A DNA stretch of 64,000 nucleotides from a virus (taxonomy: Duplodnaviria > Heunggongvirae > Uroviricota > Caudoviricetes): the IMG/VR virus record IMGVR_UViG_3300042934_000563; one strand, 5' to 3'. Both the position numbers and the translations under genes were made by a program. Shown here piece after piece: positions 23,427-64,000 of this stretch. Every line of letters begins with the position of its first letter. The stretch's first letter is position 1. The notes under the pieces were generated by a model. That model saw only the letters and a program-made list of their open reading frames with translations, was not told the DNA's origin and ran no database searches.

Positions 23427-23443
23427 GGAAGTCCCTATATCTG

Positions 23444-23489
23444 CTAGTTGCGTTGTTGCCGACAGTTTGTCAGTAGACAACGCAACTAG
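23444..23489 (-). terminator. 13-bp perfect inverted repeat (CTAGTTGCGTTGT...ACAACGCAACTAG) with nested GACAgttTGTC palindrome, between the portal and giant-protein genes
   Basis: Seen directly. Likely an attenuator, terminator or RNA processing site. Confidence 0.45.
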
Positions 23490-23501
23490 CAACTAAGAAC
23501 G

Positions 23502-26692: not shown

Positions 26693-27112
26693 CTATGCGG
26701 CTTTCGGGGTCGGGCCGTGTGCGAGGGTGACGGCGTTGCCGAACGGGTTGTAGCTGCGGAGTCGGGATCCGCACGCGCACGCGCTGCTCGGTGTAATTGC
26801 TAGTTGCTGCCCTGATTCGAGGGTGAGGGTGATGAGGCGTCCGGTGTAGGTGTCGATGCTGGTGACGTTCTCCAGGACCATGCAGTCGGGGTCGGCTCCA
26901 CGGTTGTTGGAGGTCCAGGCTCCGGCGACCCATCCGCCTTCGGGGTTGGCGATGAGGAGGAATCGGGCTGCGGTTACGCCGTTGCTGCCCAGCGTGGCGT
27001 TTGCTGGGTACAGCGACACACCGATCCGTGCGACTCCGTCGGTTACTAGTGTGCTGAGGTCGTACACGTCGCCCCTATCGTCTGAACCGTGTGGGGGCTG
27101 TGTAGGCCCCAT
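26693..27112 (-). CDS. hypothetical protein
   Basis: 139-aa ORF overlapping the terminase 3' end by 38 nt. Confidence 0.4.
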   Translation of the reverse strand: MGPTQPPHGSDDRGDVYDLSTLVTDGVARIGVSLYPANATLGSNGVTAARFLLIANPEGGWVAGAWTSNNRGADPDCMVLENVTSIDTYTGRLITLTLESGQQLAITPSSACACGSRLRSYNPFGNAVTLAHGPTPKAA

Positions 27113-42736: not shown

Positions 42737-43504
42737 TCAGGCATTGGCTTCGGCTTGCGCGGCGCTGGTGTCCCATAGGGCTCGGGGTGCGGTGCCGAAC
42801 ACGTGGGGGGCGTGTCCTGCGAGCTGGCTGCCGATTTCGATGGCTAGGCGGCGGATCTCGGCGTCGGCTGCGGGGTTGTCGCGCTTGATGAGGAACTCCA
42901 TCCATGCGCGGTAGTTGCCGGTGACGACGATTTTGGTTTCGGCTTCGTTGGGGAGGTGCGCGCGGGCGGCTTCTCGGGCGGCTTTGCGGCTGTATCCGAG
43001 GGCCAGTTTGCGTTGGACCTTAGAGTTGTAGAGGCGGAGCGCGGTGTCGTATGCCTCGGTGTGTTCGGTGAGCGCTTCGGGGTCCATGTCGTCGGCTGGC
43101 GGGATGACGAATGCGATGTCGCTGCTGTCGACGTAGCGCTGGCTGAGTTGGCTGTAGGAGAAGTGCCGGTGCCGGACCAGTTCGTGGGTGAGGGCTCGGG
43201 ACACTCCGGTGATGTAGAAGGTGACGCTGGCGTGTTCGAGGACTGAGTGGTGGACGTGGTCCAGGATGTTTGCGAGGTATCCGGCGTTGGTGGCGGTCGC
43301 GGGGTTGGTCTTGTTCCAGGATTGGTAGCAGGCTCTGCCGGAGAACTCGGCGAGGGCTTGGCCGTCGTAGGTGCCGTTCTCCGGGTCGATGAGTGTCATG
43401 TCGTCCGGGGTGAACAGGTAGCGGGTTTCGTCGCCGTCCAGTCCCAGGGGCGGCTCGAATATGGTGTACCCGACTAGGCGGACTTCCAGCTGCGCGGTTT
43501 TCAT
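42737..43504 (-). CDS. thyX: FAD-dependent thymidylate synthase ThyX
   Basis: ThyX signature 'RHRHFSYSQLSQRY' (RHR-x7-S) and overall length/composition. Confidence 0.85.
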   Translation of the reverse strand: MKTAQLEVRLVGYTIFEPPLGLDGDETRYLFTPDDMTLIDPENGTYDGQALAEFSGRACYQSWNKTNPATATNAGYLANILDHVHHSVLEHASVTFYITGVSRALTHELVRHRHFSYSQLSQRYVDSSDIAFVIPPADDMDPEALTEHTEAYDTALRLYNSKVQRKLALGYSRKAAREAARAHLPNEAETKIVVTGNYRAWMEFLIKRDNPAADAEIRRLAIEIGSQLAGHAPHVFGTAPRALWDTSAAQAEANA

Positions 43505-52584: not shown

Positions 52585-52908
52585 TTAGCTCTCCTCTGCG
52601 GCTTTGCGGGCCTCTTTGGTGGTGGCTACCCCGACGGCAAGGGTGGCGTAGATGATGTCGGCGATGGGCTGCGCGTCGGTGCCGTCGGCTTTCTCGGCGA
52701 GCTGTGTGAGGAGTCCGAGGGTTAGGCCGTAGGAGGCGAGGGTCTGGGATGCCTCGAACAGTTTGGAGGTGTCGATCTGGGTTGACTGGGTGCCGGTCTG
52801 GTGTGCAAACAACATGCTGGTGGCGAGGTACTGGATGAGGTCGGTGGGTGGCCGGAATGCTTCGGTGATGGCGCGCTTTTCGGCGGGGGTGTAAACGGTG
52901 TGGGACAT
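52585..52908 (-). CDS. hypothetical protein
   Basis: 107-aa ORF. Confidence 0.45.
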   Translation of the reverse strand: MSHTVYTPAEKRAITEAFRPPTDLIQYLATSMLFAHQTGTQSTQIDTSKLFEASQTLASYGLTLGLLTQLAEKADGTDAQPIADIIYATLAVGVATTKEARKAAEES

Positions 52909-52921
52909 GGTGGTGGGTTCC

Positions 52922-53203
52922 TTAGATGTTGTGTGTGGCGCGGATGTCGGCGATGTCAGTTTCCCAGCTTCCCCATCGCCATGATGGGAGGCCCATGATG
53001 TTTCCGAGTTCGGTGGGGCCTTCGATGAGTCGGGCGGCTTTCTCGTACGCGTTGATTTCGACTTCCAGGGCGTCGTTGATGGCGGGGATGCCTTGGGGGT
53101 GAAGGTACTCGCGTCGGTGCTCGGCGTATTTGCGGAGGACTGCGGCGAGGGTGGCGGGTGTATCAGTCATGTTGTGCTCCTTGGGTTTATGGTGCTGCCG
53201 CAT
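52922..53203 (-). CDS. hypothetical protein
   Basis: 93-aa ORF. Upstream motif copy TTGCGCTAAGGACAGAC plus TAAGGT plus GGAG SD. Confidence 0.45.
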   Translation of the reverse strand: MRQHHKPKEHNMTDTPATLAAVLRKYAEHRREYLHPQGIPAINDALEVEINAYEKAARLIEGPTELGNIMGLPSWRWGSWETDIADIRATHNI

Positions 53204-53406
53204 ACCTTAATTGCTGTCTGTCCTTAGCGCAATTTGTTGGTCGGCGTGTCGTCACATAGAGAGCATGTGGGGGTGCCGTTCCATGGGTTTCAGGGTGTAG
53301 CGGATGTGGGGGTTTTTGCGGTCGTAGTATGCGCGTCCCATGCTGTGGGTGAGGTTCACCAGGTGGTATCGGTCGCGGTGGCGCTGTGTCTCGGTGTCGA
53401 CTTCTT

Positions 53407-53595
53407 TCATGCTTCGGTGACCTCGGTGGGTAGGTGTGGGTGGCGGCGTTTGTGGAGGTGTGTGCGGACGATTCGCCGGACGGTGTCGGTGTCGCGGAAC
53501 CCTAGTCTGTCGTGTTCGTAGGTGGTGGCGAGGGCCATGATGGTCGGGGCGTCGTTGTATGCCACACGGTGCCGTTCGGGGTAGGAGTCGATCAT
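53407..53595 (-). CDS. RHPH-family small protein
   Basis: ...RIVRTHLHKRRHPHLPTEVTEA. A further approximately 56-aa unit follows (53410 down to about 53240), below the track's size cutoff. Confidence 0.5.
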   Translation of the reverse strand: MIDSYPERHRVAYNDAPTIMALATTYEHDRLGFRDTDTVRRIVRTHLHKRRHPHLPTEVTEA

Positions 53596-53749
53596 GGCTA
53601 GAGGTACTCCGCTCCGATGTGTGGGTGGCGGGCTGCGCGGTAGGCGGTGTTGCGGATCTTCCAGTGTTCGGGGGATCCGTGCCGGAGTCCGACGGTGCGG
53701 AAGATTATCTGTCGGATGTGGGCGGAGTCCGCGAAGCTGTGTCGGGCAC

Positions 53750-53986
53750 TCATGAGGCGACCTCGGGGTCGATGTGGGGGTGCCGCAAGCTGCGGTATCT
53801 GATCTCCTGGATCTGTGTGCGGATGGGGTATTCGTCGGGGCCTCCGAGGTCGTTTGCTCGGGTGATGTGCAGGACTTGCCTGCGGTCGTTGTCGTACGCT
53901 TTCCAGCCGAAGTAGTCCTCCTGGTGGGTCATGTACTCACCCATGAGTCTTTCCACCAGGTTTTGGTGTCGTAGAGGGGTCGCCAT
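53750..53986 (-). CDS. RHPH-family small protein
   Basis: ...IRTQIQEIRYRSLRHPHIDPEVAS. Confidence 0.5.
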   Translation of the reverse strand: MATPLRHQNLVERLMGEYMTHQEDYFGWKAYDNDRRQVLHITRANDLGGPDEYPIRTQIQEIRYRSLRHPHIDPEVAS

Positions 53987-55534
53987 AGGTGGACGTGCCG
54001 TCGGAGGGGGTAGGGGGTCATGAGGATGTGCTCTTTGGTTTTGCTGCTGTCGGGGGTGTGCTGGCGGGCGATGTGGCGGGCATAGTCGTTGTCGCGTGCG
54101 ACGGTGGCGCGGAGGTCTACAGGCCCGCTATGTGGGGGTGTCGGTGGATGATCCATCGCTGGTCTCCGATCATGGGTAGGTAGATGTCGATGATGCCGCC
54201 GATTCGTCGGCGTCCGTCTGGGGTTCTGCGGACGATGGCTCGGAAGGTTTCGCGGTCGAGTTCGTAGGCGTCGATGGCGTTCACGGGTAGATCCATCCTC
54301 GGAGGTGTAGGTGCCGGGTGTCTTCGTGTTTGGCGTCGTGAACCATGTAGTAGAGGTTCCGCGGGAAGTCGTCTCCGTCTTCGGCGGGGAAGATTCTCAT
54401 GAGGATGTCGTCGACGTGGTGGTGGTCGATGACGAACTGGATTTGTCTGCGGGGACTAAACACGGTTGACACTCTCCCAGTACGGGACCATGTGCGGGTA
54501 ACGGTCGGTGGCGTAGCGGCTGTTGGCGATGTGTTTGCCGTGGCCGCTGGAGTCGAACGGGTAGTCGTCGGCGTACCGCTTGAGGTGGGCGGCGATAACG
54601 GCTATATCCGCTGTCCGCTTCTGGTAGGGCCAGTTTCCGCAAGGCATGGTCAGCGCCGCTCGAACAGGTGGGGGTGGCGGACTGCTGCGCTGCGGTGTCT
54701 GACGACGCGGTCGAATAGTCGGCTGGGGTGGTCTTTGATCTCGGTGAGTTCGACGGCGAGGTTGGTGAGGGTGATGTGGTCGCGTTCCCACCAGAGTCTG
54801 GATCGGGTCATGGGGTGGTCTCTCGTTGGTTGATGGTGCTAGTTGTCCGAGTTTAGCGCATGTGTCTAGTCGTCGTCGTAGATGGTGGGGTCGTAGCCGT
54901 CGGATTTTTCGATGCCGTCGTAGAGGGGGCAGGTGTAGGCGGCTTTGATGTGGGGGTGTCTGGTGCGGTGGTGGTCGAGTTCGTGGAGGAGGGCTCCGAG
55001 TGGGTTGGGGACGATTCTGGGGTCGTAGAACTTGTTGGCGTTGTCGTCGAGGACGGTGATGTCCAGGTGGGGGTTGAGGGTGCTGTAGCGGTAGAGGGCG
55101 TGTTCTAGGTCGTAGTGGTATTCGTGGCGGTTGGTTGCGTAGTGCTTGCGGGTGTGTCTGGCTTGGGATGGTGGGAAGGGGAGGACGGGGGTGGGGGTCA
55201 TCTGTCGTACCTCCAGGGGGTCATGTGTGGGTGCCGGTTGCGGATGTAGAGGGTGTCGTTGGTGAGGTAGGTGGGTTGTCTGCCGATGAGGACTACCAGG
55301 TAGTTGTCGTCGATTCGGGACCAGCCGCGTATCTGCATCTCCTGCTGTGAGGTGAAGTCGGGTAGGGATGTCATCGTCGGGTAATCATCCGTCTCATGTG
55401 GGGGTGTCTGTGGGATACGTAGAGGGCTCTGGTGGCGTACATGTCGATTCCACGTACGAGTTTTTCGATGTGTTGGTCGTCGACGGTTGTCCAGCCGCGT
55501 ATCTGGGTTTGTGCTCGGAGGTTGGCGGCGGGGG

Positions 55535-55735
55535 TCATCGAAGTACCTTCCAGAACATGTGCGGGTGCCGGTGGTGTCGGTAGAGGGCTCTGATGAGGGT
55601 GTGTTCGTCGTCGGTGCAGGGGTCGGTTCGCTTTATCAGCGTGGCGAGGGTTATGTCGTCGAGTCGGAACCAGGCGCGTGTCTGGATTTCGATGCGTCGT
55701 TCGGCTGCTGCGGTCATCGGGGGATCCTGAACCAT
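55535..55735 (-). CDS. RHPH-family small protein
   Basis: ...TLIRALYRHHRHPHMFWKVLR. Confidence 0.5.
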   Translation of the reverse strand: MVQDPPMTAAAERRIEIQTRAWFRLDDITLATLIKRTDPCTDDEHTLIRALYRHHRHPHMFWKVLR

Positions 55736-56110
55736 TCCATGTGTTTGTGGCGGGTGCCGGAGTTGATGGTGTTGGCGAGGTTGTTGCGGTGTCGGTAGTA
55801 GTCCTCTGTGAGGTTGGTGGAGTATCTCGGGAGTTCGCGGAGGTCGTGGACGTGTTTGTCGTCGGCGCGGGTCCAGCCTCGTCGGCGGATCTGTTCGCGG
55901 AGTTGGGCGGGTTCGTCGGTGAGGTCTGTGTGGATGTAGGGGACTCTCATAGTTCGGGGTCTCCGGTGGTGAGGGTGTCGTCGATGTGTGGGTGTCGGTC
56001 CATGTGGAGGACGGGGATCTGCATTCCGAGGTTCAGGGCGATGTAGCGGCTGGTGATGGGGCCGTAGGTGTCGGGTAGGTGGAGGTCGTCCTCGGGGCGG
56101 TGGTGAAAGG

Positions 56111-56329
56111 TCATCGGGAGAGGGTGAGGTTGGCGAGTTCGCCGATGACGTATCGGATGTGTGGGTGGCGGACGTAGGTGAATGCTTGGCGGTAGACGGG
56201 GTGGTAGTGCCTGCCGTTGGCTTCTGCGGCGGATTCGTGGGCGCTGCGGATGCCGTAGTCGTCGCGCATGGCTGCGAGGGTGTCGCGGTCGGTGCGGAGG
56301 GCGGTGTTGTTGACGTTCCATTTAGGCAT
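56111..56329 (-). CDS. RHPH-family small protein
   Basis: ...YRQAFTYVRHPHIRYVIGELANLTLSR. Confidence 0.5.
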   Translation of the reverse strand: MPKWNVNNTALRTDRDTLAAMRDDYGIRSAHESAAEANGRHYHPVYRQAFTYVRHPHIRYVIGELANLTLSR

Positions 56330-56518
56330 TTAGTGGTCTACTCCGGGTGGGGTGGGGGGATGGGCGTATGGGATGTGTGGGTGGCGGTCCTTATGCAGTA
56401 CAGCATAGTCGTAGTCGAGGGTGTATTCGATGCCGTATTGGTCGAATAGGTCGTTGACGTGGAAGTGGTCGACGGTGGCGTAGGCGCGTCGGGATCGGAG
56501 GACGTTGTGTCTGTTCAT
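56330..56518 (-). CDS. RHPH-family small protein
   Basis: ...DYDYAVLHKDRHPHIPYAHPPTPPGVDH. Confidence 0.5.
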   Translation of the reverse strand: MNRHNVLRSRRAYATVDHFHVNDLFDQYGIEYTLDYDYAVLHKDRHPHIPYAHPPTPPGVDH

Positions 56519-56712
56519 AGGGCTGTCCTTGGGTGGGGGTGAAGGAATCCGTCCCCGTCGGTGCGGTTGATTCCTAGGTGTGGGTGGCGGTGGAGGTGGT
56601 AGACGACGGGGTTGTATAGGGGTTGGTAGTGGTGGAGGTCGTAGCGCTCCAGGATGTCGTAGGTGGTGCGGTGATCGCGTTTCCTGTAGCGCTTGAAAAA
56701 TACCCAGCTCAT
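56515..56712 (-). CDS. RHPH-family small protein
   Basis: ...YNPVVYHLHRHPHLGINRTDGDGFLHPHPRTAL. Confidence 0.5.
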   Translation of the reverse strand: MSWVFFKRYRKRDHRTTYDILERYDLHHYQPLYNPVVYHLHRHPHLGINRTDGDGFLHPHPRTAL

Positions 56713-56907
56713 GCGAGGTATCCGGTGGCGAATTTGAGTTTGATGGCGAGGTGCCGGTCGTCGGCGTAGACGATGCGTCGGACGGGGTGGTGGAGGATTT
56801 TTGGGGTACCGATTGGGTAGACCTCGTAGTCGCGGGAGTAGAAACCGAGGTTTCGGGCGTTGGCGCGTCGGGCGTTGTCGATGGTCATCATGGGCTTACT
56901 CCGGGGG

Positions 56908-57117
56908 TTAGAAGGGGTAGCTGCTGGTGTTGGCGTAGGTGGGGGAGAACGGGTTGAGGTGTGGGTGGCGGTCGGCTACCCAGGTGGTGTTGTAGATGAG
57001 GTTGTAGATGCGGTGGATTTCGTGGACGGGGATGTCGGCGATGTCGGCGTCTCGGACGCGTTCGCGGTAGAGGTTTTGGGCGGCGCGGTAGTCGTGGGTG
57101 CGGGTGTTGTGGGTCAT
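56908..57117 (-). CDS. RHPH-family small protein
   Basis: ...RTHDYRAAQNLYRERVRDADIADIPVHEIHRIYNLIYNTTWVADRHPHLNPFSPTYANTSSYPF. Confidence 0.55.
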   Translation of the reverse strand: MTHNTRTHDYRAAQNLYRERVRDADIADIPVHEIHRIYNLIYNTTWVADRHPHLNPFSPTYANTSSYPF

Positions 57118-57996
57118 CGTTGTGTGGTGAGGGGTCGGGGCATGTGGGGGTGCCGTTTGTGTGCGTGGGAGGCACAGTTGATGAGTTTTCCCTGGCGGAT
57201 GGTGGCGTGGGCGCGTTGGGGGGTGTTGACCGTGTGTTGGTAGTCGCGGCGTTGGATGTCGTATCTGTTCATCGGTAGTGCTTTCTGATGTGTGGGTGTC
57301 GGTGTCCTGGGTTGACGAGTCGGGTGTAGTTCCGAATGTCTGGGTGGTATCCGCCGTGGTAGTAGGTGTCGACGATGCGGCGCAGTATGGCTTCGTCCCA
57401 GTTTTCCCGGTTTTCGGTCATGGGTGAGGTGGTCCAGAGTGAGGGGCCTGAGTAGAGGTTCATAGGTGTAGGTATCCGTGGATCTGTGGGTGTCGGGTGA
57501 TGGTGTCGGAGGTGTGCCGGAGGGTGACGGCTTGCTGGCGTGATGCGGTGACGGATCGTCGGAGGAGGCGGTAGCCGTGGTGGCGGTCGCGGCATTCGGC
57601 GAGGTTGGCGCGCGCGTAGGTTGCGGCTACGTCGTCGTCGGACATTACCAGGCTCTTTCGTCGATGATGGATGGCGCGATGTGGGGGTGTCGGCGGGTGG
57701 TGGTGAGTGCTCGGACGATGTGGCTGCGTCCTGGGTTTCTGCCGTAGTTGTGGTTGCGGCGGAGGGCGAGGATGAGTGGTCGGTCGCGTTCGGTGTTGGT
57801 GGTCATGCGTCTCATGGGGCGCACCTGGCGGCGATGGTGTTGTCGATGTGGGGGTGGCGGTGCCAGCGGTCGACGGTTCGCATGGCTGCGCGGGTGTGGG
57901 TGCTGTTGTAGCTGTAGTCGTCTCCGAGGTGTCGGATGGCGAGGGTTTTTGCGTTGTTGTAGTCGGTGACGGCGCGTTCCTGGAGGTTGTCTCGGT

Positions 57997-58197
57997 TCAT
58001 GGGAGGGCCTGGTCTGTGATGTGTGGGTGTCGGTGGAGTGGTGTGCATAGTTTGATGCATCGGCGGCGGAATCTGGGGTTTACGCGGTAGTTGGTGGCGC
58101 GTGGGGCGTACGGGTCAGCGACTTGGGCGAGGTGGTGGAGGTCGTCTTGTTCGCGGGCGAGTCTGCGGTAGTGGGGGGTGTTGTAGCGGGGGTTCAT
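57997..58197 (-). CDS. RHPH-family small protein
   Basis: ...RRCIKLCTPLHRHPHITDQALP. Confidence 0.5.
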   Translation of the reverse strand: MNPRYNTPHYRRLAREQDDLHHLAQVADPYAPRATNYRVNPRFRRRCIKLCTPLHRHPHITDQALP

Positions 58198-58965
58198 GGT
58201 AGGCGGAGTTCCTCGTCGGTCATGTGTGGGTGTCGGTAGGTGTAGCGGGTGGCGTTTTTGATGATGATGTGGTCGTAGTAGCTGGGGAGGTAGTCGATGA
58301 TGTCGCCGACGGCGTAGTAGTCGGCGCGTCCGATGCGGGCGTAGTTGCTGTTCACAGGTTGGCGATCTGGTGGGGGAGGTGGATGTGTCGGACGCGTCGG
58401 TCGATGGTGCGGAGGATGGTGTGGCGGGTGCCGGATCCGAGGGGGGTGTCGTGTATGTCGGCGAGGTAGGCGCTGACGTTGTAGTCGCTGGTTTGGAGGG
58501 TCATAGTGCGCTCACTTGTGGGGGTAGGTGGGGGTGCCGGTTGTGGCGGTAGATGCTGTGGAGGACGCGGTAGCGGGCAGCTGTTTCGGATGGGATGCGG
58601 TGGTTGCGGGCGAGGCAGAGGGTGGCGACGTGGTCGTGGGTTTCCAGGGTCATAGCGTGGTGATTCCTGTGGATAGGTGGGGGTGTCTGCGGAAGGGTTG
58701 GACGCTGTTGACGATGCGGAGGCGGTCGATGTCGTAGCCGTGGAGTCCTGCGGTGGCAGCGATGCCGCACAGGTGGAGGTATTGGGCGCTGTAGAGGTCT
58801 CGGGTCATGGTCAGGGCCATCTTCCGAGGTCGATGTGGGGGTGTCTGTGGAGGGGGTGGGCGAGGTTGGTGAAGCTGAGGCTGGTGGCGGGGCCAACGTT
58901 GAGGTCGCGGCGGTTGTGGATGTCGATGAACAGTCTGGTGTCGTGGCCGAACGTCTTGGGGATCA

Positions 58966-59163
58966 TCATGTGTGCAGCTCCAGTCCGATGTGGGGGTGTC
59001 TGCTGGTGGGGGCGTCTTGTTGGCTGATGCGGTTGCGTTGGGGGCGGGTGATGATGCGGTCGTAGCCGCATTTTCTGTTGTGGGTTCGTACCAGTCTGAC
59101 GTGGTGGAGTCCGTCGACGCGGACTTGCCGGATGACGCGGTTGAGTGCGGGGCGGCGGGTCAT
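58966..59163 (-). CDS. RHPH-family small protein
   Basis: ...ISQQDAPTSRHPHIGLELHT. Confidence 0.5.
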   Translation of the reverse strand: MTRRPALNRVIRQVRVDGLHHVRLVRTHNRKCGYDRIITRPQRNRISQQDAPTSRHPHIGLELHT

Positions 59164-59498
59164 CTGGTCACCATACTGTCAGCATGTGCGGGTGTCGGAT
59201 GTTGACGTATGCGGCGCGGAGGACTTTCTGTCGGGGCTTGGTGAAGTGGATTAGTTGCTGTTTGTCTGCGAGGTCTTGGAGGTAGATGAGGGTGTCGGCG
59301 AATTGTTCGTAGTTGGTTTGGGCAAATGAGGGGTTCATTGGCGTGTGAGGTTTCTGGGTAGGTGGGGGTGCCGGTGGACGGGGTAGGCGGCGAGTCTGAT
59401 GCAGCGGGCGGTGAGGTTTCGGCGGCGGGGGTTGTTGCGGTGGGCTCGGAGGAGGAGGTCGAGGGTGTCTACGTCGTCGTAGTGGCGGTAGAGGTTCA

Positions 59499-59699
59499 TC
59501 AGTAGATGTCGTCGGGGGTGTGGGGGTGGCGGGTGTATTGGTTGGTTCCGGCGTCGATGATCTGTGCTCGGGTGGTGTAGTCGGCGAAGCTGCCGTGGAA
59601 GTAGAGGCGGTGGTGGTCGGCGAGGTCGCTGGCTGCGCCGTAGTCGCGGCGGTGTCGTTTGATCTCGATGGGGGTGAGGGGTGGGGGTTCGGTGCTCAT
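59499..59699 (-). CDS. RHPH-family small protein
   Basis: ...RRDYGAASDLADHHR...AQIIDAGTNQYTRHPHTPDDIY. Confidence 0.55.
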   Translation of the reverse strand: MSTEPPPLTPIEIKRHRRDYGAASDLADHHRLYFHGSFADYTTRAQIIDAGTNQYTRHPHTPDDIY

Positions 59700-59709
59700 G
59701 GGTGGTTTC

Positions 59710-59904
59710 CTAGCGGATGTTGGGGTGTATGTGTGGGTAGCGGTTGCGTACGTCGGCGTTGTCGACGATGCGGTGGTAGTTGCGGGTGTCGGTGTAATGG
59801 TCGTCGCTTCTGTAGGTGTTGTGGAGGTAGAGGCTGTGCATGGCGGCGAGGTTCTCGTAGTGGTCGTAGTCGAAGCTGGTTTGGGACATTTTTCGGAGGG
59901 TCAT
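59710..59904 (-). CDS. RHPH-family small protein (RYPHI variant)
   Basis: ...YHRIVDNADVRNRYPHIHPNIR. Confidence 0.55.
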   Translation of the reverse strand: MTLRKMSQTSFDYDHYENLAAMHSLYLHNTYRSDDHYTDTRNYHRIVDNADVRNRYPHIHPNIR

Positions 59905-59907
59905 GGG

Positions 59908-60099
59908 TTACCACCAGGCTAGTTCGGGGTCGATGTGGGGGTGTCGGTTGTAGTTTTCGGGGAGTCCGATGATGGTCCGGTAGGTGTGGGCGCGGCGTTT
60001 TCCTCGGTAGACGGAGATGTAGGGGTAGCCGTTGGCTGCTGCGACTTTTTTGAAGTACCAGAAGTCGCGGTCGGTGATGGCTTGTTGTTCGGGGGTCAT
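59908..60099 (-). CDS. RHPH-family small protein
   Basis: ...TIIGLPENYNRHPHIDPELAWW. Confidence 0.55.
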   Translation of the reverse strand: MTPEQQAITDRDFWYFKKVAAANGYPYISVYRGKRRAHTYRTIIGLPENYNRHPHIDPELAWW

Positions 60100-60293
60100 A
60101 GTTGTCCGGCTAGGGGGGTTCGGGGGTGGCGGACGTAGGGGAGGTGTTGGTTGACGATGCGCCAGTGGGTGGGGGTGGTGCGGTTGGTGTATGCGTCGGG
60201 GAAGCTGTGGCCGTTGGCTTTGGCGAGGTCGTCTAGGTGGTCTTCGTCGGCGTATTGGCGGTCGTAGAATCCGGCGTGGGTGTGGTGGATCAT
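60096..60293 (-). CDS. RHPH-family small protein (RHPRT variant)
   Basis: ...THWRIVNQHLPYVRHPRTPLAGQL. Confidence 0.5.
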   Translation of the reverse strand: MIHHTHAGFYDRQYADEDHLDDLAKANGHSFPDAYTNRTTPTHWRIVNQHLPYVRHPRTPLAGQL

Positions 60294-60496
60294 CGTCCGG
60301 TCCGGTTGGGGGTGGTGAGTGGGGTTCCGAGGTGGCGGTTGCCGCTGGTGCAGTTTTCGAGGATGCGCCAGTAGGCGCGGGGGTCGCCGCGTTCGACGGC
60401 GGCTTTGTGGTTGACGCCGTGGTAGAGGGCGATGTCGTTGAGGTGGCGGATGTCTTCTTGGTGGTGGGTGATTAGTCGGAGGTGTGGGGGGATCAT
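60290..60496 (-). CDS. RHPH-family small protein (degenerate NRHLG variant)
   Basis: ...AYWRILENCTSGNRHLGTPLTTPNRTGR. Confidence 0.5.
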   Translation of the reverse strand: MIPPHLRLITHHQEDIRHLNDIALYHGVNHKAAVERGDPRAYWRILENCTSGNRHLGTPLTTPNRTGR

Positions 60497-60708
60497 CTGA
60501 GTCCTTGGCGGGTGAGTTCGTGGGGGATGTGGTAGTGGCGGATGCCTGCGAGTGAGGTGTCGACTATGCGCCAGTGGGTGCGGTCTAGTTGGGCGTAGTC
60601 CACTCGGGTGTTGTGGTCGCGGGCTGCTCGGAGGATGTCAGCGTGGTTGATGTCGGCGATGGTTCTGGTGTGTTTGTAGTCGGTTTCTCGTCGTTCGTGG
60701 GTGGTCAT
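60493..60708 (-). CDS. RHPH-family small protein (RHYHI variant)
   Basis: ...TDYKHTRTIADINHADILRAARDHNT...HWRIVDTSLAGIRHYHIPHELTRQGLR. Confidence 0.55.
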   Translation of the reverse strand: MTTHERRETDYKHTRTIADINHADILRAARDHNTRVDYAQLDRTHWRIVDTSLAGIRHYHIPHELTRQGLR

Positions 60709-60896
60709 CGTGCTCCGATGGTGGTGAGTCGGTCGGGGAGGTGTGGGTGTCTGTGGTCGGGGTGGGAGGTTCGCACGATGTACCAGTAGAGGGTGTCTGC
60801 GTCCGGGTCGTGGTGGTTGAGGAGGGTGGTTTTGTTTCTGTCGGTGATGGCGCTGATGTAGGGGTAGTCGATGCGGAGTTGTTCGCGGGGGGTCAT
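60705..60896 (-). CDS. RHPH-family small protein
   Basis: ...YWYIVRTSHPDHRHPHLPDRLTTIGAR. Confidence 0.6.
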   Translation of the reverse strand: MTPREQLRIDYPYISAITDRNKTTLLNHHDPDADTLYWYIVRTSHPDHRHPHLPDRLTTIGAR

Positions 60897-61081
60897 TCGG
60901 CGAGGTCCTTGGTGATGTGGGGGTGTCGGCAGGTGGGGAGTGTTTGTTTGGTGATGCTTTGGCCGGTGTCTCCGAAGCGTTCGCCGGGGAGTGTGTGGTT
61001 GCGGGCGATTCTGTCGGCGTGGTTGTAGTCGATGACGGTCCGGTCGTAGAGGCGGTCTCCGGGGTTGATGTAGCTGGTCAT
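60893..61081 (-). CDS. RHPH-family small protein
   Basis: ...VIDYNHADRIARNHT...TKQTLPTCRHPHITKDLAE. Confidence 0.6.
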   Translation of the reverse strand: MTSYINPGDRLYDRTVIDYNHADRIARNHTLPGERFGDTGQSITKQTLPTCRHPHITKDLAE

Positions 61082-61278
61082 CGGTTGGTGGCCTCCATGA
61101 TCTCTCTGCCTAGGTGTGGGTGCCGGTGGTGGCGGGTGGCTTGGTCGATCATGTGGAGGTCGACGTTGGCGTAGCCGTTTTCGCGGGGGGTGTGGATTTC
61201 GGCGAGGTCGTCGATGTGACTGTAGTCGCGGGTGAATTGTTGGGTGGTGTGGCGGTTGTGTTTGATCTTGGGTTTCAT
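61078..61278 (-). CDS. RHPH-family small protein
   Basis: ...TRDYSHIDDLAEIHT...HMIDQATRHHRHPHLGREIMEATNR. Confidence 0.6.
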   Translation of the reverse strand: MKPKIKHNRHTTQQFTRDYSHIDDLAEIHTPRENGYANVDLHMIDQATRHHRHPHLGREIMEATNR

Positions 61279-61472
61279 GTGCGTAGTTCCTGGAGTAGCT
61301 GGAGGTGGTGGGGGTGGCGGTAGTAGGTGCTGGCTTGGTCGGCGATGCGGTAGCCGGGGTTGGGGTGGCCGACGGGCATGGGGGCGATGTGGGTGCGGAT
61401 GAGTGAGTGGAGGGTGGAGTAGTCGCGGCGGTAGATGTGTTCGTAGGTGCGTTGGTAGGTGGGTGCGGTCAT
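61275..61472 (-). CDS. RHPH-family small protein
   Basis: ...RRDYSTLHSLIRTHIAP...YRIADQASTYYRHPHHLQLLQELRT. ATGA overlap. Confidence 0.6.
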   Translation of the reverse strand: MTAPTYQRTYEHIYRRDYSTLHSLIRTHIAPMPVGHPNPGYRIADQASTYYRHPHHLQLLQELRT

Positions 61473-61660
61473 CGGTGGTTCCTGATTTCTCGGATGAGTT
61501 TGGTGTGGTGGGGGTGTCTGCCGAGGGGGCTGGCTTGGTCGGCGATGAGGCTGGTGTGGGTGGGTATTCCGAGGGTGTCGTGGGTGGTGGTGTGGTCGCG
61601 GGCGATGTGGTCGAGTGCGTTGTAGTCGCGGGTGAGAGCTTGGCCGTAGGGGGTGGTCAT
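61469..61660 (-). CDS. RHPH-family small protein
   Basis: MTTPYGQALTRDYNALDHIARDHT...SLIADQASPLGRHPHHTKLIREIRNHR. Confidence 0.6.
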   Translation of the reverse strand: MTTPYGQALTRDYNALDHIARDHTTTHDTLGIPTHTSLIADQASPLGRHPHHTKLIREIRNHR

Positions 61661-61848
61661 GTGTAGTAGTTCCCCATGTGTGGGTGGCGGTTGTGTGCGG
61701 CGGCTTTTCCGTAGATGCCGAAGTAGGTGTCCATGCGGTCGGTGTCGCCGTTGCAGCTTCTCCAGGTGTAGCCGTTGCGGTCGGCGACTAATCCGAGTGC
61801 GCCGGAGTCGATGTTGAGTTGGGTGATGTGTCTAGAAGTGCTGCGCAT
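61657..61848 (-). CDS. RHPH-family small protein
   Basis: ...KAAAHNRHPHMGNYYT. Confidence 0.55.
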   Translation of the reverse strand: MRSTSRHITQLNIDSGALGLVADRNGYTWRSCNGDTDRMDTYFGIYGKAAAHNRHPHMGNYYT

Positions 61849-62026
61849 AGGGGCCGCTCATGTGTGGGTGTCGGTTGATTTGGTGGGTGAGGTCGACGAT
61901 GAGGCCGTGGATGTGGACGCGGGTGCTGTCTCGTTTGCAGTGGGCCCATCCGTAGCCGTGGGTGATGGCGATGTCGCCGAAGGCGTCGAGGTCGGTGATG
62001 TGTACGTCGAAGGGGTCGCGGGGCAT
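61832..62026 (-). CDS. RHPH-family small protein
   Basis: ...THQINRHPHMSGPYAQHF. Confidence 0.55.
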   Translation of the reverse strand: MPRDPFDVHITDLDAFGDIAITHGYGWAHCKRDSTRVHIHGLIVDLTHQINRHPHMSGPYAQHF

Positions 62027-62223
62027 GGGGTGCCTGTCAGTGGTAGTCGAGGTGGGGGTGCCGGAATCGGATGGATGTGGCGGTGCGGATGTGGTGGTGG
62101 CTGTACTCCCACCAGTAGGGCTTGGGTGTGGGTAGGCGGTAGGCGGTTCTGGCGGTGATGTCGTCCAGGTATCGGGCGTCGCGGATCCGGGCGTCGAGTG
62201 GGTTGAGGGGCATGTGGGTCCTG

Positions 62224-62385
62224 TCAGTGGAGGTGGGGGTGTCGGAATCTGAGTTGGGAGTTTCGGACGATGATGGTGTGGCTGTGGAGCCAGCTGGGGT
62301 GGACTTTGTCCCAGTCGGCGGCGTTGTGGGTAGCTACGCGCTGGAGGTGCTCGGAGTCCCGGATCCGGGCTTTCTGTGGGTGGGT
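62224..62385 (-). CDS. RHPH-family small protein (first array unit; ...LRFRHPHLH)
   Basis: Internal ATG of track frame 62224..62532, immediately downstream of two tandem TTGCGCTAATC.GGGAC motif copies. Confidence 0.5.
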   Translation of the reverse strand, partial: THPQKARIRDSEHLQRVATHNAADWDKVHPSWLHSHTIIVRNSQLRFRHPHLH

Positions 62386-62397
62386 GGGCATCTTGCC

Positions 62398-62461
62398 ATT
62401 GTCCCTGATTAGCGCAACCTTGGCAAGTGGGCCCTGGTGGTGTCCGGGATTAGCGCAAGTG
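62398..62461 (-). promoter_or_regulatory. two tandem copies of TTGCGCTAATC(C/A)GGGACA about 42 bp apart, immediately upstream of the RHPH array
   Basis: Plus-strand GATTAGCGCAACC at about 62404 and GATTAGCGCAAGTG at about 62446. The minus-orientation copies are separated by 25 bp. The ATG of the first array gene follows the proximal copy by about 19 nt, suggesting a short or absent leader. Confidence 0.5.
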
Positions 62462-62530
62462 AATTGTATTTGAGTTGTGCGGGCGGGCAGCCGAGGGGTT
62501 TTTTGAGCGAACTTTTGGGCTTTGACCAGC

Positions 62531-62590
62531 ATATATACGACTCTCCGAGTCGTATCGTTCGCGTTGCGAACGACCGTAGCGCTGAGCGCT
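62531..62590. repeat. three consecutive perfect palindromes (ATACGACTC-tcc-GAGTCGTAT; CGTTCGC-gtt-GCGAACG; CGTAGCGC-tga-GCGCTACG)
   Basis: Seen directly. Located between the end of gene 62589..62846 and the array promoters. Confidence 0.6.
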
Positions 62591-62846
62591 ACGCTGCGCC
62601 CTCGGGCGGAGTCTCCAGGATCTCGATCAGCTGGAGGCCAATTCCAGCCTCTGTGGTGCCCTGTAGGGCCCGTGCGTACTCGAACAGTGTCGCCCTGGAC
62701 TGTATGAGGAGCTGGACAGCTGCCAGCATCCCAGCGACATCCTCGGTCCGAAGCGATACCCGAGGTTCATCCTCTAAATGCGCCTCCAGCACAGCACCCT
62801 GCACGCGCTCCAGCAGTACGACGATGGGGTTGATGGGTTCAGTCAT
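62589..62846 (-). CDS. hypothetical small protein
   Basis: About 85-aa ORF (MTEPINPIVVLLERVQGAVLEAHLEDE...). A GTG at 62852 could be an alternative start. Confidence 0.4.
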   Translation of the reverse strand: MTEPINPIVVLLERVQGAVLEAHLEDEPRVSLRTEDVAGMLAAVQLLIQSRATLFEYARALQGTTEAGIGLQLIEILETPPEGAA

Positions 62847-62852
62847 AGGCAC

Positions 62853-63060
62853 ACACTATGCGAACCATGCACGCACACCATGCACACCATGCACTGCACA
62901 CATGGACAGCTATGCACATACGCATACACATGCACACATACACACAGTACATACATGCTGGTAGACCATGGTATTGCTATGTGTATGTGTATGTGGGTAC
63001 ACACATACACACATGGGTATGTACCACACTATGTAGTACCTATGTAGTAGGGCCTGTAGT
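62853..63060. repeat. CA/TG-rich alternating purine-pyrimidine tract with reiterated CATGCAC(A) heptamers and TATGTGTATGTG / GGTACACACATAC palindromic segments
   Basis: Seen directly. Non-coding, and compositionally very different from the rest of the window. Confidence 0.6.
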
Positions 63061-63500
63061 AGGGGCCCTATATAGGCCCTATGTGGAGGGCCCTATATGC
63101 GACTTCTCCATAAGGCCCATATAGAAGGCCCTATATAGGCCCTTTCTGGGCAATTCGATATATGCGATTTCCCTATTAGAGCCTCCAGGAGGGCCCATAT
63201 AGCGAAACGCGCATATGGGGATCCTTAGCATAGGCAACTTTTCTACCAGGGCTTATTAGGGAACCCTTATCCAGCTTTACATAATGGGTATTATCGGCAA
63301 AGTTTGTATATCCGCAGGTCACAGCGTTTTCGATTTCTTTGTACCACGGTACAAACCCTAATACGGTTGGTACAAAGGATTTGGGCGGATCCGGCCAACC
63401 GAGCAGGGCCAGCCGGACCCTTTCAAACAACCCACGGCGCAGGAAACGCCAATTCCCAGACATCCCTCGGGGGAGACGAAAGGCCCATATGGGGCCCTCC
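63053..63500. repeat. at least 7 copies of the palindromic motif GGCCC(T/A)TATA(G/T)GGCCC, plus TTTGTACC-acg-GGTACAAA and TTGGTACAAA sites
   Basis: GGGGCCCTATATAGGCCC (63063), GGCCCTATATG (63088), GGCCCATATAG (63113), GGCCCTATATAGGCCC (63124), GGCCCATATAG (63188), GGCCCATATGGGGCC (63480). Lower-GC stretch 63240-63340. Confidence 0.6.
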
Positions 63501-63736
63501 AGAGGATCATTGTGTGATTCTCGATGTTGGACCGCCCACGATACGCCAAAACGCCCTCCAGGGCACTGGGAGCGACTTATCGCGGTCGATGAGGGGACCG
63601 ACTAACGGCGACGAACAGTGTGAGCCCCTGGAGGGCGCAACCGTGTGGAATCGGTGCTGAGGCGAGACACACGGCAGATCGGAGCATACAGGCCGATATA
63701 TGCAAATTGTCCACCGGGGTCACAAAGTCGATTCTT

Positions 63737-63753
63737 GCGCTAACTAACGACTC
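63737..63753 (+). promoter_or_regulatory. copy of TTGCGCTAA-N5-GAC motif (TTGCGCTAACTAACGAC) on the plus strand near the window end
   Basis: Flanked by direct repeats GGGGTCACAA(A)GT (63714, 63850) and a GACCGAA-gattg-TTCGGTC hairpin (63824..63842). No ORF is visible downstream within the window. Confidence 0.35.
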
Positions 63754-64000
63754 TGTGGAGGCCCACCGAACAAAATTCGGCTAAATGCTTGGGAATCAGG
63801 ACAACTAGCGGCAGATAAGGGCTGGACCGAAGATTGTTCGGTCGTAGAGGGGTCACAAGTTTGTGTTGTGGCTACACTTCGTTGACAACGCAGGCACACG
63901 CGCGCGAGGGAAAAACGCAACGCGGCTTGCCTAGAGGGCCCATTAGAGCCCCCTAGGAGCCATTTTCAGCCTGTTAGAACTCCCAGTCATCATCCTCGGT

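Follow-up and report, generated by a model that had tools for sequence, protein, structure and literature searches.

Large gene-free regions are rare in phages, and where they occur they usually mark what drives the infection, be it a replication origin, a packaging site, an early control region or a source of abundant non-coding RNAs. The window analyzed here is a 64,000-nt stretch of DNA from a novel, uncultured actinophage with a genome of about 110 kb, and near its right end it carries such a region, referred to below as the hub. Which of these functions does the hub serve? The original prediction had emphasized its repeats and proposed a replication origin, a partition centromere or a packaging/cos region. 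We weighed these proposals against the gene content, the conservation and the predicted structures of the locus.

Gene content of the hub and its surroundings

To the right of the hub is the 3' end of nrdF, whose stop codon is at 63974, and to its left begins an array of about 50 tiny paralogous genes. All genes flanking the hub share one strand (leftward). The NrdF assignment is based on 660 phage NrdF matches and on PF00268 in the syntenic genes. The nearest cellular NrdF homologs are from Rhodococcus (78-80% identity), and the host of the phage is probably Rhodococcus. In its gene content (terminase, ThyX, NrdF, arrays of tiny genes) the phage resembles large lytic-type phages. Past position 64000, the next 11.5 kb contain nrdF, a gene for a 396-aa Bro-N protein and small orphan genes. 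Elsewhere, this 396/412-aa neighbor matched Bro-N/KilAC domains only and led to no more distant syntenic relatives, and none of the NrdF relatives at 82% identity or less was syntenic.

About 1.4 kb of this region had been described as having no convincing ORF. This is true of positions 62847-63973 (1,127 nt), but to their left there is a gene for an 85-aa protein (Table 1). This gene is real: it is kept in three lineages, and its substitutions are biased over codon positions 1/2/3 (8/5/20). Its product is predicted to form three helices (pLDDT 74.5); it had no family match and no Foldseek fold match, and only two clusters were found among 5.8 billion proteins. The ORFs of the hub itself had no matches in Pfam and PHROG searches. 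One of them, a 95-aa ORF on the minus strand (63176-63463), is open in relatives, but its substitutions are spread evenly over the codon positions (6/5/6) and thus it is not coding. Since the hub ORFs match no family and the only ORF that persists in the relatives lacks the codon-position bias seen in the 85-aa gene, the hub is non-coding. ARAGORN found no tRNA or tmRNA in it. The composition is unusual, as had been noted, although the background is about 62% G + C and not 65%: the lowest G + C of the window is in the hub, with 40% at 63277-63376 and 45.5% over 62912-63311.

Table 1. Features of the hub and its flanks (positions in the 64,000-nt window)
Feature	Position	Strand	Basis or remark
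Promoter region of the tiny-gene array	62398..62458	-	TTGCCA-17-GACAAT ends 6 nt before ATG at 62394 (-)
Three tandem hairpins from the stop codon of the 85-aa gene	62535..62592	-	Folding
85-aa orphan gene	62589..62846	-	Kept in three lineages
CA/TG alternating purine/pyrimidine tract, reaching the start codon of the 85-aa gene	62853..63047		Composition scan
Roughly 9 degenerate TATRTRG..GGCCC units, three composite sites CWTATRGGGCCCTCC among them	63029..63202		Motif counts
AT-richer patch with the lowest G + C of the window	63203..63398		8.2% substitutions vs lineage B
14-bp hairpin with four G.U pairs, downstream core edge	63382..63421	-	Proposed terminator/3' structure of a leftward transcript
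Ultra-conserved core	63399..63758	-	Lineages B and C identical over 360 nt; may be a non-coding RNA or a cis-acting element
Long inverted repeat inside the core, perfect 12-nt arms CGCCCTCCAGGG / CCCTGGAGGGCG	63548..63641		Palindrome search and folding
Promoter-type motif copy TTGCGCTAA-N4-SGAC, rightward	63735..63751	+	No -10 at 17/18 nt
Hairpin GACCGAA-CAATC-TTCGGTC	63826..63844	-	z -3.9
Terminator-like hairpin just after nrdF (63924-63961), then a second short hairpin and a T5 run	63900..63961	-	Folding
3' end of nrdF, class Ib ribonucleotide reductase beta subunit (...TEDDDWEF*)	63974..64000	-	Translation; gene body beyond the window

Conservation of the hub in related lineages

The same layout is kept in two related metagenome lineages, B and C. 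Lineage C is 97% identical to the window, and there are only two effectively independent lineages for comparison. Against lineage B, 34 of the 886 aligned positions at 62853-63758 are substituted (3.8%), compared with 17.9% at the four-fold sites of nrdF, which agrees with the earlier view of a functional non-coding locus. The non-coding DNA of the hub is conserved more strictly than the neighboring genes, including the ribonucleotide reductase gene. Constraint is graded along the locus: substitutions amount to 0.6% in the core, 2.8% in the TATA/GGCCC array, 6.4% in the CA/TG tract, 8.2% in the AT-richer patch and 12.9% in the 85-aa gene.

The strongest constraint falls on a repeat-poor core of 326-360 nt, which the original prediction had left unmarked, and not on the repeat arrays that it had emphasized. 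Across 15 contigs, which come from three lineages and about a dozen samples, the 326 nt at 63422-63747 do not vary. Lineages B and C have no differences in the core, where 58-64 neutral ones are expected from the nrdF four-fold sites, and the two differences that were counted there occur in the window alone. The second-longest identical run is 86 nt over an alignment of 3.7 kb that includes nrdF. The core has no credible ORF.

The hub DNA had no similarity to 50,697 phage records in near and distant search modes, nor to plasmid sequences. The core had no match beyond the same lineages in phage, plasmid, IMG/VR, JGI and GTDB searches; exact-pattern scans of IMG/VR, JGI metagenomes and GTDB genomes returned the same lineages or chance matches only, and nhmmer found no match of the hub in 1 Mb of other fetched loci. 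Two of the matches came from elsewhere: a planctomycete-like contig (L105), and a Lentisphaeria MAG (a genome assembled from a metagenome) that carries an unrelated repeat. Rfam 15, searched twice, gave sub-threshold chance matches only, such as miRNA models on the CA/TG tract.

Could such identity arise without any special function of the core? The identical tract might be a recent recombination or gene-conversion patch among co-circulating lineages, and the rest of the hub intergenic DNA of the usual kind, in which terminators and promoters accompany simple repeats prone to slippage. Phages have mosaic genomes, the segment adjoining the core on the right has been replaced by non-homologous DNA in lineage B, the lineages occur together in one sample series (e.g., the LARS22-1 scaffolds), and the comparison includes few lineages. 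However, the core is the only tract longer than 86 nt in the alignment, it is identical in all 15 contigs of the three lineages, and the left flanks are also below neutral divergence (2.8-8.2% vs 17.9%), a gradient unlike that of a single exchanged patch. We regard this explanation as quite unlikely.

Repeat arrays, AT-richer patch and a possible replication origin

The alternating tract with CATGCAC repeats was confirmed. Purine/pyrimidine steps alternate at 85% of positions in 62853-63047 compared with 51% for the window; this is the only place in the 64 kb with at least 72% alternation per 100 nt, and the longest perfect alternating run of the window (36 nt) lies within it. CATGCAC has four exact copies in the tract and nine in the window. 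Compared with lineage B, the tract also has four indel events totaling 23 nt, and the lineages differ by whole repeat units.

The GGCCC/TATA elements are indeed clustered here, but at least seven copies of a palindrome had been reported, and exact 16-mers occur only twice; moreover, CCTATATAGG is a palindrome while GGCCCTATATAGGCCC is not. The array is better described as a series of direct, degenerate units. GGCCC(N0-1)TAT has seven of its 12 window matches at 63064-63482, and GGCCC(N0-1)TATA has five matches in the hub and none elsewhere in the window. The units are 11-14 nt long, irregularly spaced (11, 14, 25, 13, 11 and 54 nt) and vary in copy number between lineages; one 11-nt unit is deleted in lineage B, and one contig (L002) has a single SNP in the array. 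The TTGTACC sites are present in the AT-richer patch, about 40 nt to the right of where they had been placed, as a palindrome TTTGTACC-AC-GGTACAAA at 63338-63355 with a third half-site at 63368-63377; three of the four window copies of GGTACAAA are in this patch. Both direct repeats GGGGTCACAA were also found (exact copies at 63716 and 63849), but two copies of a 10-mer in 1.1 kb are about what chance would give, and they are not conserved, the second lying inside the segment replaced in a relative. We thus rejected them as a functional repeat. GSCCTCCA has five of its 21 window copies in the hub.

Iteron or transcription-primed phage origins exist, including lambda ori, T4 oriF/oriG and the T7 primary origin. 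If the hub were an origin of lytic replication, an initiator would bind either the TATA/GGCCC units or the core's GSCCTCCA motifs, and the AT-richer patch, with its 40% G + C, would melt. RNA-primed or transcription-linked origins are known from T4 oriF/oriG, the T7 primary origin and ColE1, and by analogy a core transcript might prime synthesis. The concentration of two repeat families in the hub, the lowest G + C of 64 kb immediately downstream of the core, the constraint on the whole 0.9 kb and the long inverted repeat inside the core are all consistent with an origin, and an adjacent AT-rich stretch, as expected for the unwinding element of an iteron origin, is present at 63277-63376. However, iterons are at least three direct repeats of about 17-22 bp in helical phase, and the hub has short, irregular units of varying number. 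There is no DnaA-box cluster; the single 8/9 site compares with about 10 such sites expected in the window, so that we rejected a DnaA-dependent origin. In the vicinity, neither the window ORFs tested nor the adjoining 11.5 kb on the right contained a recognizable initiator, helicase or primase gene, and the neighbors are nrdF, the Bro-N protein gene and small orphan genes. The skew analysis that had been suggested placed the cumulative GC-skew maximum about 3.3 kb to the right of the hub, at about 67 kb in extended coordinates, where a divergent junction carries about 18 copies of TGAGTCA(C) that look more iteron-like. Within the hub the skew stays level, and in this genome it follows transcription direction, which makes it a weak test. 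The hub also had no plasmid match. Altogether an origin at the hub is unlikely.

A parS-like partition centromere of a plasmid-prophage would agree with the cluster of short dyad-symmetric repeats. Compared with a parS array, however, the dyad-like repeats of the hub, as judged from their sequence, are degenerate and their copy number drifts between lineages. By Pfam, no ParA, ParB, Rep or integrase was found in the ten largest ORFs of the window or in the 11.5 kb past 64000, and no telomerase was recognized in these regions either. A cognate parA/parB or initiator gene had been anticipated beyond 64000 or in a 637-aa Cys/His protein; the former did not appear in the 11.5 kb, and the latter has no Pfam domain. 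With the absence of plasmid similarity and the large lytic-type gene content, a centromere is very improbable.

A possible packaging signal or genome terminus

The hub might also be a packaging signal or a genome terminus, if the assemblies have collapsed a pac site or a short direct terminal repeat. In that case the repeat or the terminase recognition region would be the invariant core, and by analogy the tiny early genes would enter first. In T7, T5 and SPO1, the early genes are the first to enter the cell. The hub is directly upstream of the long tiny-gene array, and its extreme conservation would suit a site that has to be recognized and cut. Furthermore, the large terminase has its closest relatives (50-54% identity) in Gordonia phages such as Sixama, whose record carries a 1.7-kb direct terminal repeat with genes 1-3 repeated as genes 198-200. 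However, this repeat is mostly coding and unrelated in sequence to the hub. The large terminase gene of our phage is at 27075-28793, 34 kb away, whereas a cos or pac site is typically adjacent to it, although long terminal repeats are not. In addition, ten contigs from different assemblers read through the hub. Several contigs start at 63.89-63.98 kb, but we rejected these starts as genome ends, since their positions differ and coincide with the boundary of lineage divergence, as strain mixtures would produce. We consider the earlier packaging/cos proposal improbable.

Hairpins flanking the core and the 85-aa gene

The three adjacent palindromes reported at the left end were found at 62535-62555, 62556-62572 and 62576-62592. 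As minus-strand RNA they fold with -31 kcal/mol (z -4.6). Lineages B and C have another, unrelated perfect hairpin, GATCTGGC-TT-GCCAGATC, in place of the third and a different loop in the second, so that structure is kept while the sequence changes. The three hairpins are stable, follow a stop codon and are kept in structure across relatives, and they appear to be a tandem intrinsic terminator of the 85-aa gene that lacks a U-tract. In actinobacteria the U-tract of intrinsic terminators is optional.

On the nrdF side, lineage B has three changes in the stem of the first hairpin, of which one converts U.G to C-G, one converts C-G to U.G and one breaks a pair beside the loop. The overlapping segment 63934-63977 folds with -16.6 kcal/mol as minus-strand RNA and -8.8 kcal/mol as plus-strand RNA. 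The hairpin at 63826-63844, the TTGACA hexamer (63882-63887) and the TTGCGCTAA copy at 63735 are all present as reported. Lineage B has another loop in the hairpin at 63826-63844, as well as an A-to-G change that yields a G.U pair on minus-strand RNA alone.

The hairpin at the downstream edge of the core shows the same strand preference. As minus-strand RNA, 63382-63421 folds with -26.2 kcal/mol (z -3.6, 94% of the ensemble), compared with -16.8 kcal/mol (z -0.6) on the plus strand, and pairing survives the two substitutions of lineage B (G.U to G-C and G-C to G.U). For the long inverted repeat inside the core, the two strands fold almost equally well (-43 to -44 kcal/mol; z -4.3 and -5.1). 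The core as a whole folds unexceptionally (minus strand z -1.4, plus strand z -2.1), a candidate RNA spanning 63690-63382 has z -2.3, and the invariance of the core leaves no covariation signal.

The TTGCGCTAA promoter motif

Eight copies of TTGCGCTAA were analyzed. Five of them (10413, 29482, 45312, 51006 and 53232) read TTGCGC-17/18 nt-TANNNT, and a gene start, in most cases with a ribosome-binding site, follows 20-66 nt downstream; such a -10 has a background frequency of 0.3%. TTGCGCTAA appears to be the -35 part of a phage promoter motif. The other three copies (62417, 62458 and 63735) have no -10 at this spacing and are all around the hub. Two of these, at 62401-62417 and 62442-62458, are TTGCGCTAA-N4-GGAC copies at the promoter of the tiny-gene array.

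T4 middle promoters, in which a MotA box replaces the -35, offer an analogy that may be apt: at five sites upstream of genes, a conserved 9-mer is centered near -31 and reaches past the normal -35, together with an ordinary TANNNT -10. Unlike in T4, no MotA/AsiA-like protein was identified here, and the three copies in the hub area lack a -10.

A proposed leftward non-coding RNA or leader locus

We tentatively read the hub as a leftward non-coding RNA or leader locus under purifying selection, a reading that we favor with somewhat less than even confidence. Transcription of nrdF would stop at two or three hairpins (63961-63826). The invariant core (63758-63399) would be a separate unit, expressed as a non-coding RNA of about 300-370 nt that ends at the strong RNA-only hairpin 63421-63382. 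The AT-richer patch, the TATA/GGCCC array and the CA/TG tract may then serve as upstream regulatory DNA and as the leader of the 85-aa gene, whose transcript would end at the three tandem hairpins (62592-62535). Beyond these, a sigma-A-type promoter, overlapped by the two operator-like TTGCGCTAA copies, would start the array of about 50 tiny genes, which we take as early genes.

In favor of an RNA locus, the core is bracketed like a transcription unit, with hairpins on the nrdF side and an RNA-strand-specific hairpin downstream. The constraint on the core, the folding of the candidate RNA, the terminator structure kept despite sequence change, the TTGCGCTAA promoters and the precedents in phages of related hosts (below) also speak for this reading. 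We infer that the core is transcribed from a promoter of its own and acts as RNA, and that the repeats have the roles given above. The best sigma-A candidates for the core, TGGACA-19 nt-TATGCT and TTGTGA-17 nt-CATATA, are weak, and none is convincing. The absence of differences in the core is stricter than most RNAs would need, and it could also reflect recombination or a dense DNA-level function. Likewise, arrays of short dyad repeats beside the DNA of lowest G + C fit DNA-binding functions equally well.

A more specific version of the RNA reading is that the core is an undescribed large structured non-coding RNA, which might act as primer or organizer of an RNA-primed origin or as a host-directed RNA. 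This is possible but doubtful; the sequence constraint on the core would then be rRNA-like. If the core is an RNA, it would add a large class of phage RNA for actinobacteria, where abundant phage ncRNAs have been seen and are not understood. Should the hub be an origin or packaging site, vector construction and the rebooting of synthetic high-GC phage genomes could profit from it. The 326-nt core gives studies of this uncultured phage group a precise target, whether by deletion, RNA mapping or binding.

Comparison with known systems

Lambda ori, T4 oriF/oriG and the T7 primary origin share with the hub short repeats by an AT-rich stretch that melts easily and possibly promoter-like elements upstream of that stretch. 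Unlike these origins, the hub has no adjacent initiator gene, its repeats are short, irregular and variable, and the skew switch is 3.3 kb off.

In the cluster A mycobacteriophages L5, D29 and StarStuff, abundant stable non-coding RNAs are produced from a gene-free region of about 500 bp downstream of Pleft, the early lytic promoter (PMC5712189). That region is at the genome end beside cos; the hub is between nrdF and the tiny-gene array. The two have no sequence similarity, and the cluster A region was reported to be divergent, while the core described here is invariant. The cluster A region is transcribed, whereas transcription of the hub is predicted. Both, however, are gene-free over several hundred bp at the head of an early operon, have no conserved ORF, and carry copies of a regulatory motif that is dispersed in the phage (operator/stoperators there and TTGCGCTAA here).

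Rhodococcus phage WC1 has three transcribed non-coding intergenic regions, nc_1 to nc_3, which are its most highly expressed loci (PMC10986025). WC1 is a 46-kb temperate phage of cluster CA with no sequence match to the hub, and its loci are expressed, whereas expression of the hub is predicted. Like the hub, nc_1 to nc_3 are intergenic non-coding loci, and the host genus is probably shared.

Conservation of the hub

The genes flanking the hub, the gene-poor right end of the window, are all on the minus strand. From right to left, the nrdF stop codon is followed by 1,127 nt of non-coding DNA, an 85-aa gene, three hairpins, a promoter-like site, and an array of tiny genes. The original prediction saw no convincing ORF here, but the 85-aa gene is genuine: it is found in all relatives, with substitutions of 8/5/20 by codon position. 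A 95-aa ORF reported by some gene callers has a 6/5/6 split and thus is not coding. Nearly all the motifs listed earlier are present and concentrated in the hub. The CA/TG tract (85% purine/pyrimidine alternation vs. 51%) is unique within the window, whose G+C minimum, 40% over 100 nt, also falls in the hub. The background G+C is about 62%, not 65%. The TTGTACC sites exist but had been misplaced at 63300–63340, while the GGGGTCACAA direct-repeat pair is present but no more than chance gives, and its second copy is not conserved. The GGCCC...TATA...GGCCC 16-mer, said to be a palindrome in at least 7 copies, is not palindromic and has two exact copies; about nine degenerate direct units describe the array better.

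The hub had no match in phage, plasmid, IMG/VR, JGI, or GTDB collections. Two related phage lineages were recovered from metagenome assemblies through exact-protein look-ups: lineage B (L007–L016), whose 85-aa protein is 87% identical, and lineage C (L017–L020), whose hub is 97% identical. Synteny with the window is the same in both. The substitution rates of the hub segments show stronger constraint on the central 0.9 kb than on the coding DNA next to it. Between B and C, whose neutral divergence is 17.9% (nrdF four-fold sites), one block of 360 nt is identical; the second-longest identical run in the 3.7 kb aligned, nrdF included, is 86 nt. In this core, 58–64 neutral differences were expected. 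Two SNPs, both private to the window, are all that varies in the block across 15 contigs (about a dozen samples), and thus its inner part is invariant. The core might be a functionless recombination patch, but this reading is distinctly unlikely and is weakened by the graded constraint of its flanks.

Positions of features, and substitutions and indel events between the window and lineage B
Feature	Position	Strand	Substitutions	Indel events
Capsid gene	13608–15287
1,773-aa ORF	18171–23492	minus
Large terminase (Terminase_6N/6C)	27075–28793	minus
tRNA-Lys (single)	30360
ThyX	42737–43504
TTGCGCTAA-N4-SGAC with TANNNT at 17/18 nt	10413, 29482	plus
Same	45312, 51006, 53232	minus
Same, lineage B	L007:174
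Tiny-gene array	52900–62532	minus
HNH insertion point	~62500–62530
HNH gene, lineage B	L007:5384–5830
Three hairpins			16%	4
85-aa gene	62589–62846	minus	12.9%	0
Non-coding stretch proper	62847–63973
CA/TG tract			6.4%	4
TATA/GGCCC array			2.8%	3
SGATATATGCRANTTSTCC copies	63087–63110, 63152–63175, 63690–63713
26-nt identity	63119–63144 = L004:2431–2456
95-aa ORF (rejected)	63176–63463
AT patch			8.2%	0
TTGTACC sites	63338–63377
Core	63399–63758		0.6%	0
Invariant part of core	63422–63747
Candidate RNA	63690–63382
nrdF stop to core			13.6%	4
nrdF-side hairpins	63924–63961, 63826–63844
Test-fold segment	63934–63977
nrdF stop	63974–63976	minus
Lone nrdF and surroundings	63974–64000, L117:9296–11511
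Divergent junction	L117:8706–9296 (~66.9–67.5 kb, extended)

Two short sequences were also noted. A direct repeat of about 20 nt, SGATATATGCRANTTSTCC (repeat family D1), has two copies in the array; a third, in the invariant core, overlaps the best of the promoter-like candidates. A 26-nt stretch (TATAGAAGGCCCTATATAGGCCCTT-type) is exactly identical to part of L004, an unrelated 231-kb, 42%-GC IMG/VR contig, whose intergenic DNA holds repeated copies of CTATATAG, with similar TATGTACTACC units after them. Convergence of promoter- or terminator-like units could explain the identity, as could a small element common to both.

Predicted RNA structures

No credible ORF, Rfam match, tRNA, or tmRNA was found in the core. 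Inside the core lies an inverted repeat spanning 94 nt, whose 12-nt arms match perfectly (z −4.3 and −5.1), and a 14-bp hairpin with four G·U pairs marks the core's downstream edge. This hairpin folds at −26.2 kcal/mol (z −3.6) as minus-strand RNA vs. −16.8 (z −0.6) as plus-strand RNA, and both lineage B substitutions in it are wobble-compatible. The candidate RNA has a fold z of −2.3. Changes in the nrdF-side hairpins (U·G to C-G or A-U to G·U) keep pairing only on minus-strand RNA, and in a test fold of an overlapping segment the stability of the minus-strand RNA was roughly double that of the plus-strand RNA.

The triple palindrome begins on the 85-aa gene's stop codon. Lineages B and C have a different loop in its second hairpin and, in place of the third, a perfect hairpin of unrelated sequence. 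Since the structure is kept and the sequence is not, the triplet appears to behave as terminators or 3′-end structures. In lineage B only, a 148-aa HNH endonuclease gene (NUMOD4 and HNH_3) directly follows the three hairpins. Several contigs stop at the insertion point, suggesting that strains carrying the insertion are mixed with others lacking it.

We tentatively regard the hub as a leftward-transcribed non-coding control locus. The right-hand hairpins would end nrdF transcription. The invariant core would be a separate unit, transcribed from its own promoter (candidates are weak) into a non-coding RNA of about 300–370 nt that is closed by the RNA-specific hairpin and would function as RNA. 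The AT patch, repeat array, and CA/TG tract would be regulatory DNA and leader for the 85-aa gene, whose transcript would terminate at the triple hairpin. A separate promoter, subject to TTGCGCTAA-type control, would then drive the tiny genes.

Promoters and the tiny-gene array

The motif TTGCGCTAA occurs 8 times vs. 0.14 expected, and the extended motif TTGCGCTAA-N4-SGAC has 14 matches vs. 1.9 expected. Five TTGCGCTAA copies and one in L007 have the form TTGCGC-17/18 nt-TANNNT, a −10 whose background frequency at such spacing is 0.3%. They are 20–66 nt upstream of gene starts, directed toward the gene, and mostly accompanied by a ribosome-binding site. Judged by sequence, these copies are promoters of a phage-specific class. 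The conserved block reaches past the normal −35, suggesting that an extra factor is used. The class bears a resemblance, and no more than that, to activator-dependent middle promoters of the MotA-box type. Three copies around the hub carry no −10. At the promoter-like site (TTGCCA-17-GACAAT), which ends 6 nt ahead of the ATG heading the tiny-gene array, two of the three overlap its spacer and flank; they may act as operator-like sites.

The array consists of fifty consecutive genes of 50–111 aa. An RHPH-type motif (RHPH[ILM]) lies about 10 residues ahead of the stop in 37 of them, and 26 form one cluster by BLASTP. They are a very large tandem paralogue array and are probably early genes. Four members tested had no PHROG match. 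A nucleotide motif, CGNCACCC(C/A)CAC, recurs in the array every ~150–200 nt (54 matches vs. 7 expected).

DNA beyond the window and alternative functions

nrdF encodes a class Ib ribonucleotide reductase beta subunit and runs off the right end of the window. The nearest cellular homologs of the phage NrdF are from Rhodococcus (78–80% identity), and thus the host is likely to be Rhodococcus-like. The gene stands alone, with no nrdE, nrdI, or nrdH in evidence over 11.5 kb; given this identity, the host alpha subunit may be the partner of its product. Loci extending rightward (L117, L007, L017) contain the rest of nrdF, two small genes, and, upstream of nrdF, a gene for a 396-aa protein with a Bro-N domain. 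Past these is a 590-nt divergent junction dense in TGAGTCA(C) repeats, followed by a small-gene array in the opposite orientation. The junction has TGAGTCA(C)/GTGACTCA about 18 times, in both orientations, together with GCAAWTTGC-like sites and one TTGCGCTAA promoter.

A replication origin in the hub would fit repeats paired with AT-rich DNA, but it is unlikely: the repeats are irregular and variable in number, there is no DnaA-box cluster, no replication gene was recognized nearby, and the cumulative GC skew maximum is about 3.3 kb to the right, outside the hub, at the more iteron-like array of the divergent junction. By position, this junction is a better candidate for an origin or master-control region. 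A partition centromere, also suggested originally, is extremely improbable, having no positive support; by Pfam, no ParA, ParB, Rep, or integrase was recognized among the ten largest window ORFs or in the 11.5 kb past 64000.

The window belongs to a novel actinobacteriophage and runs opposite to the usual orientation. Its DNA resembles known phages in patches (73% in capsid genes of the Gordonia phages GMA2 and Sixama; 85% across 400 nt of the Rhodococcus phage Mbo2 tape-measure gene). Two Logan contigs from a single run (75,960 and 33,986 bp) jointly cover about 110 kb, and the breaks between them fall within nrdF and at the tRNA gene. The 1,773-aa ORF lies between the capsid and large terminase genes, amid minus-strand structural and packaging genes. 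The large terminase is 50–54% identical to counterparts in 103–122-kb Gordonia phages. These nearest terminase relatives have a terminal-repeat habit and the hub sits ahead of the tiny genes, as a packaging site or short terminal repeat might, yet we consider this very unlikely.

Comparison with known systems

The core is a sharply bounded, ultra-conserved target in an uncultured phage group. It may be a large structured RNA not seen before, or an RNA-primed origin, but this is doubtful, and the hub element would overturn nothing established. The element matches nothing described, while its class is familiar: phage loci that are conserved and non-coding and serve as control regions, RNAs, or origins. 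There are precedents for a non-coding RNA locus in phages of related hosts. In L5, D29, and StarStuff, a gene-free region behind Pleft gives abundant stable non-coding RNAs (PMC5712189), and Rhodococcus phage WC1 produces non-coding RNAs from three intergenic regions, the most highly expressed loci of that phage (PMC10986025).
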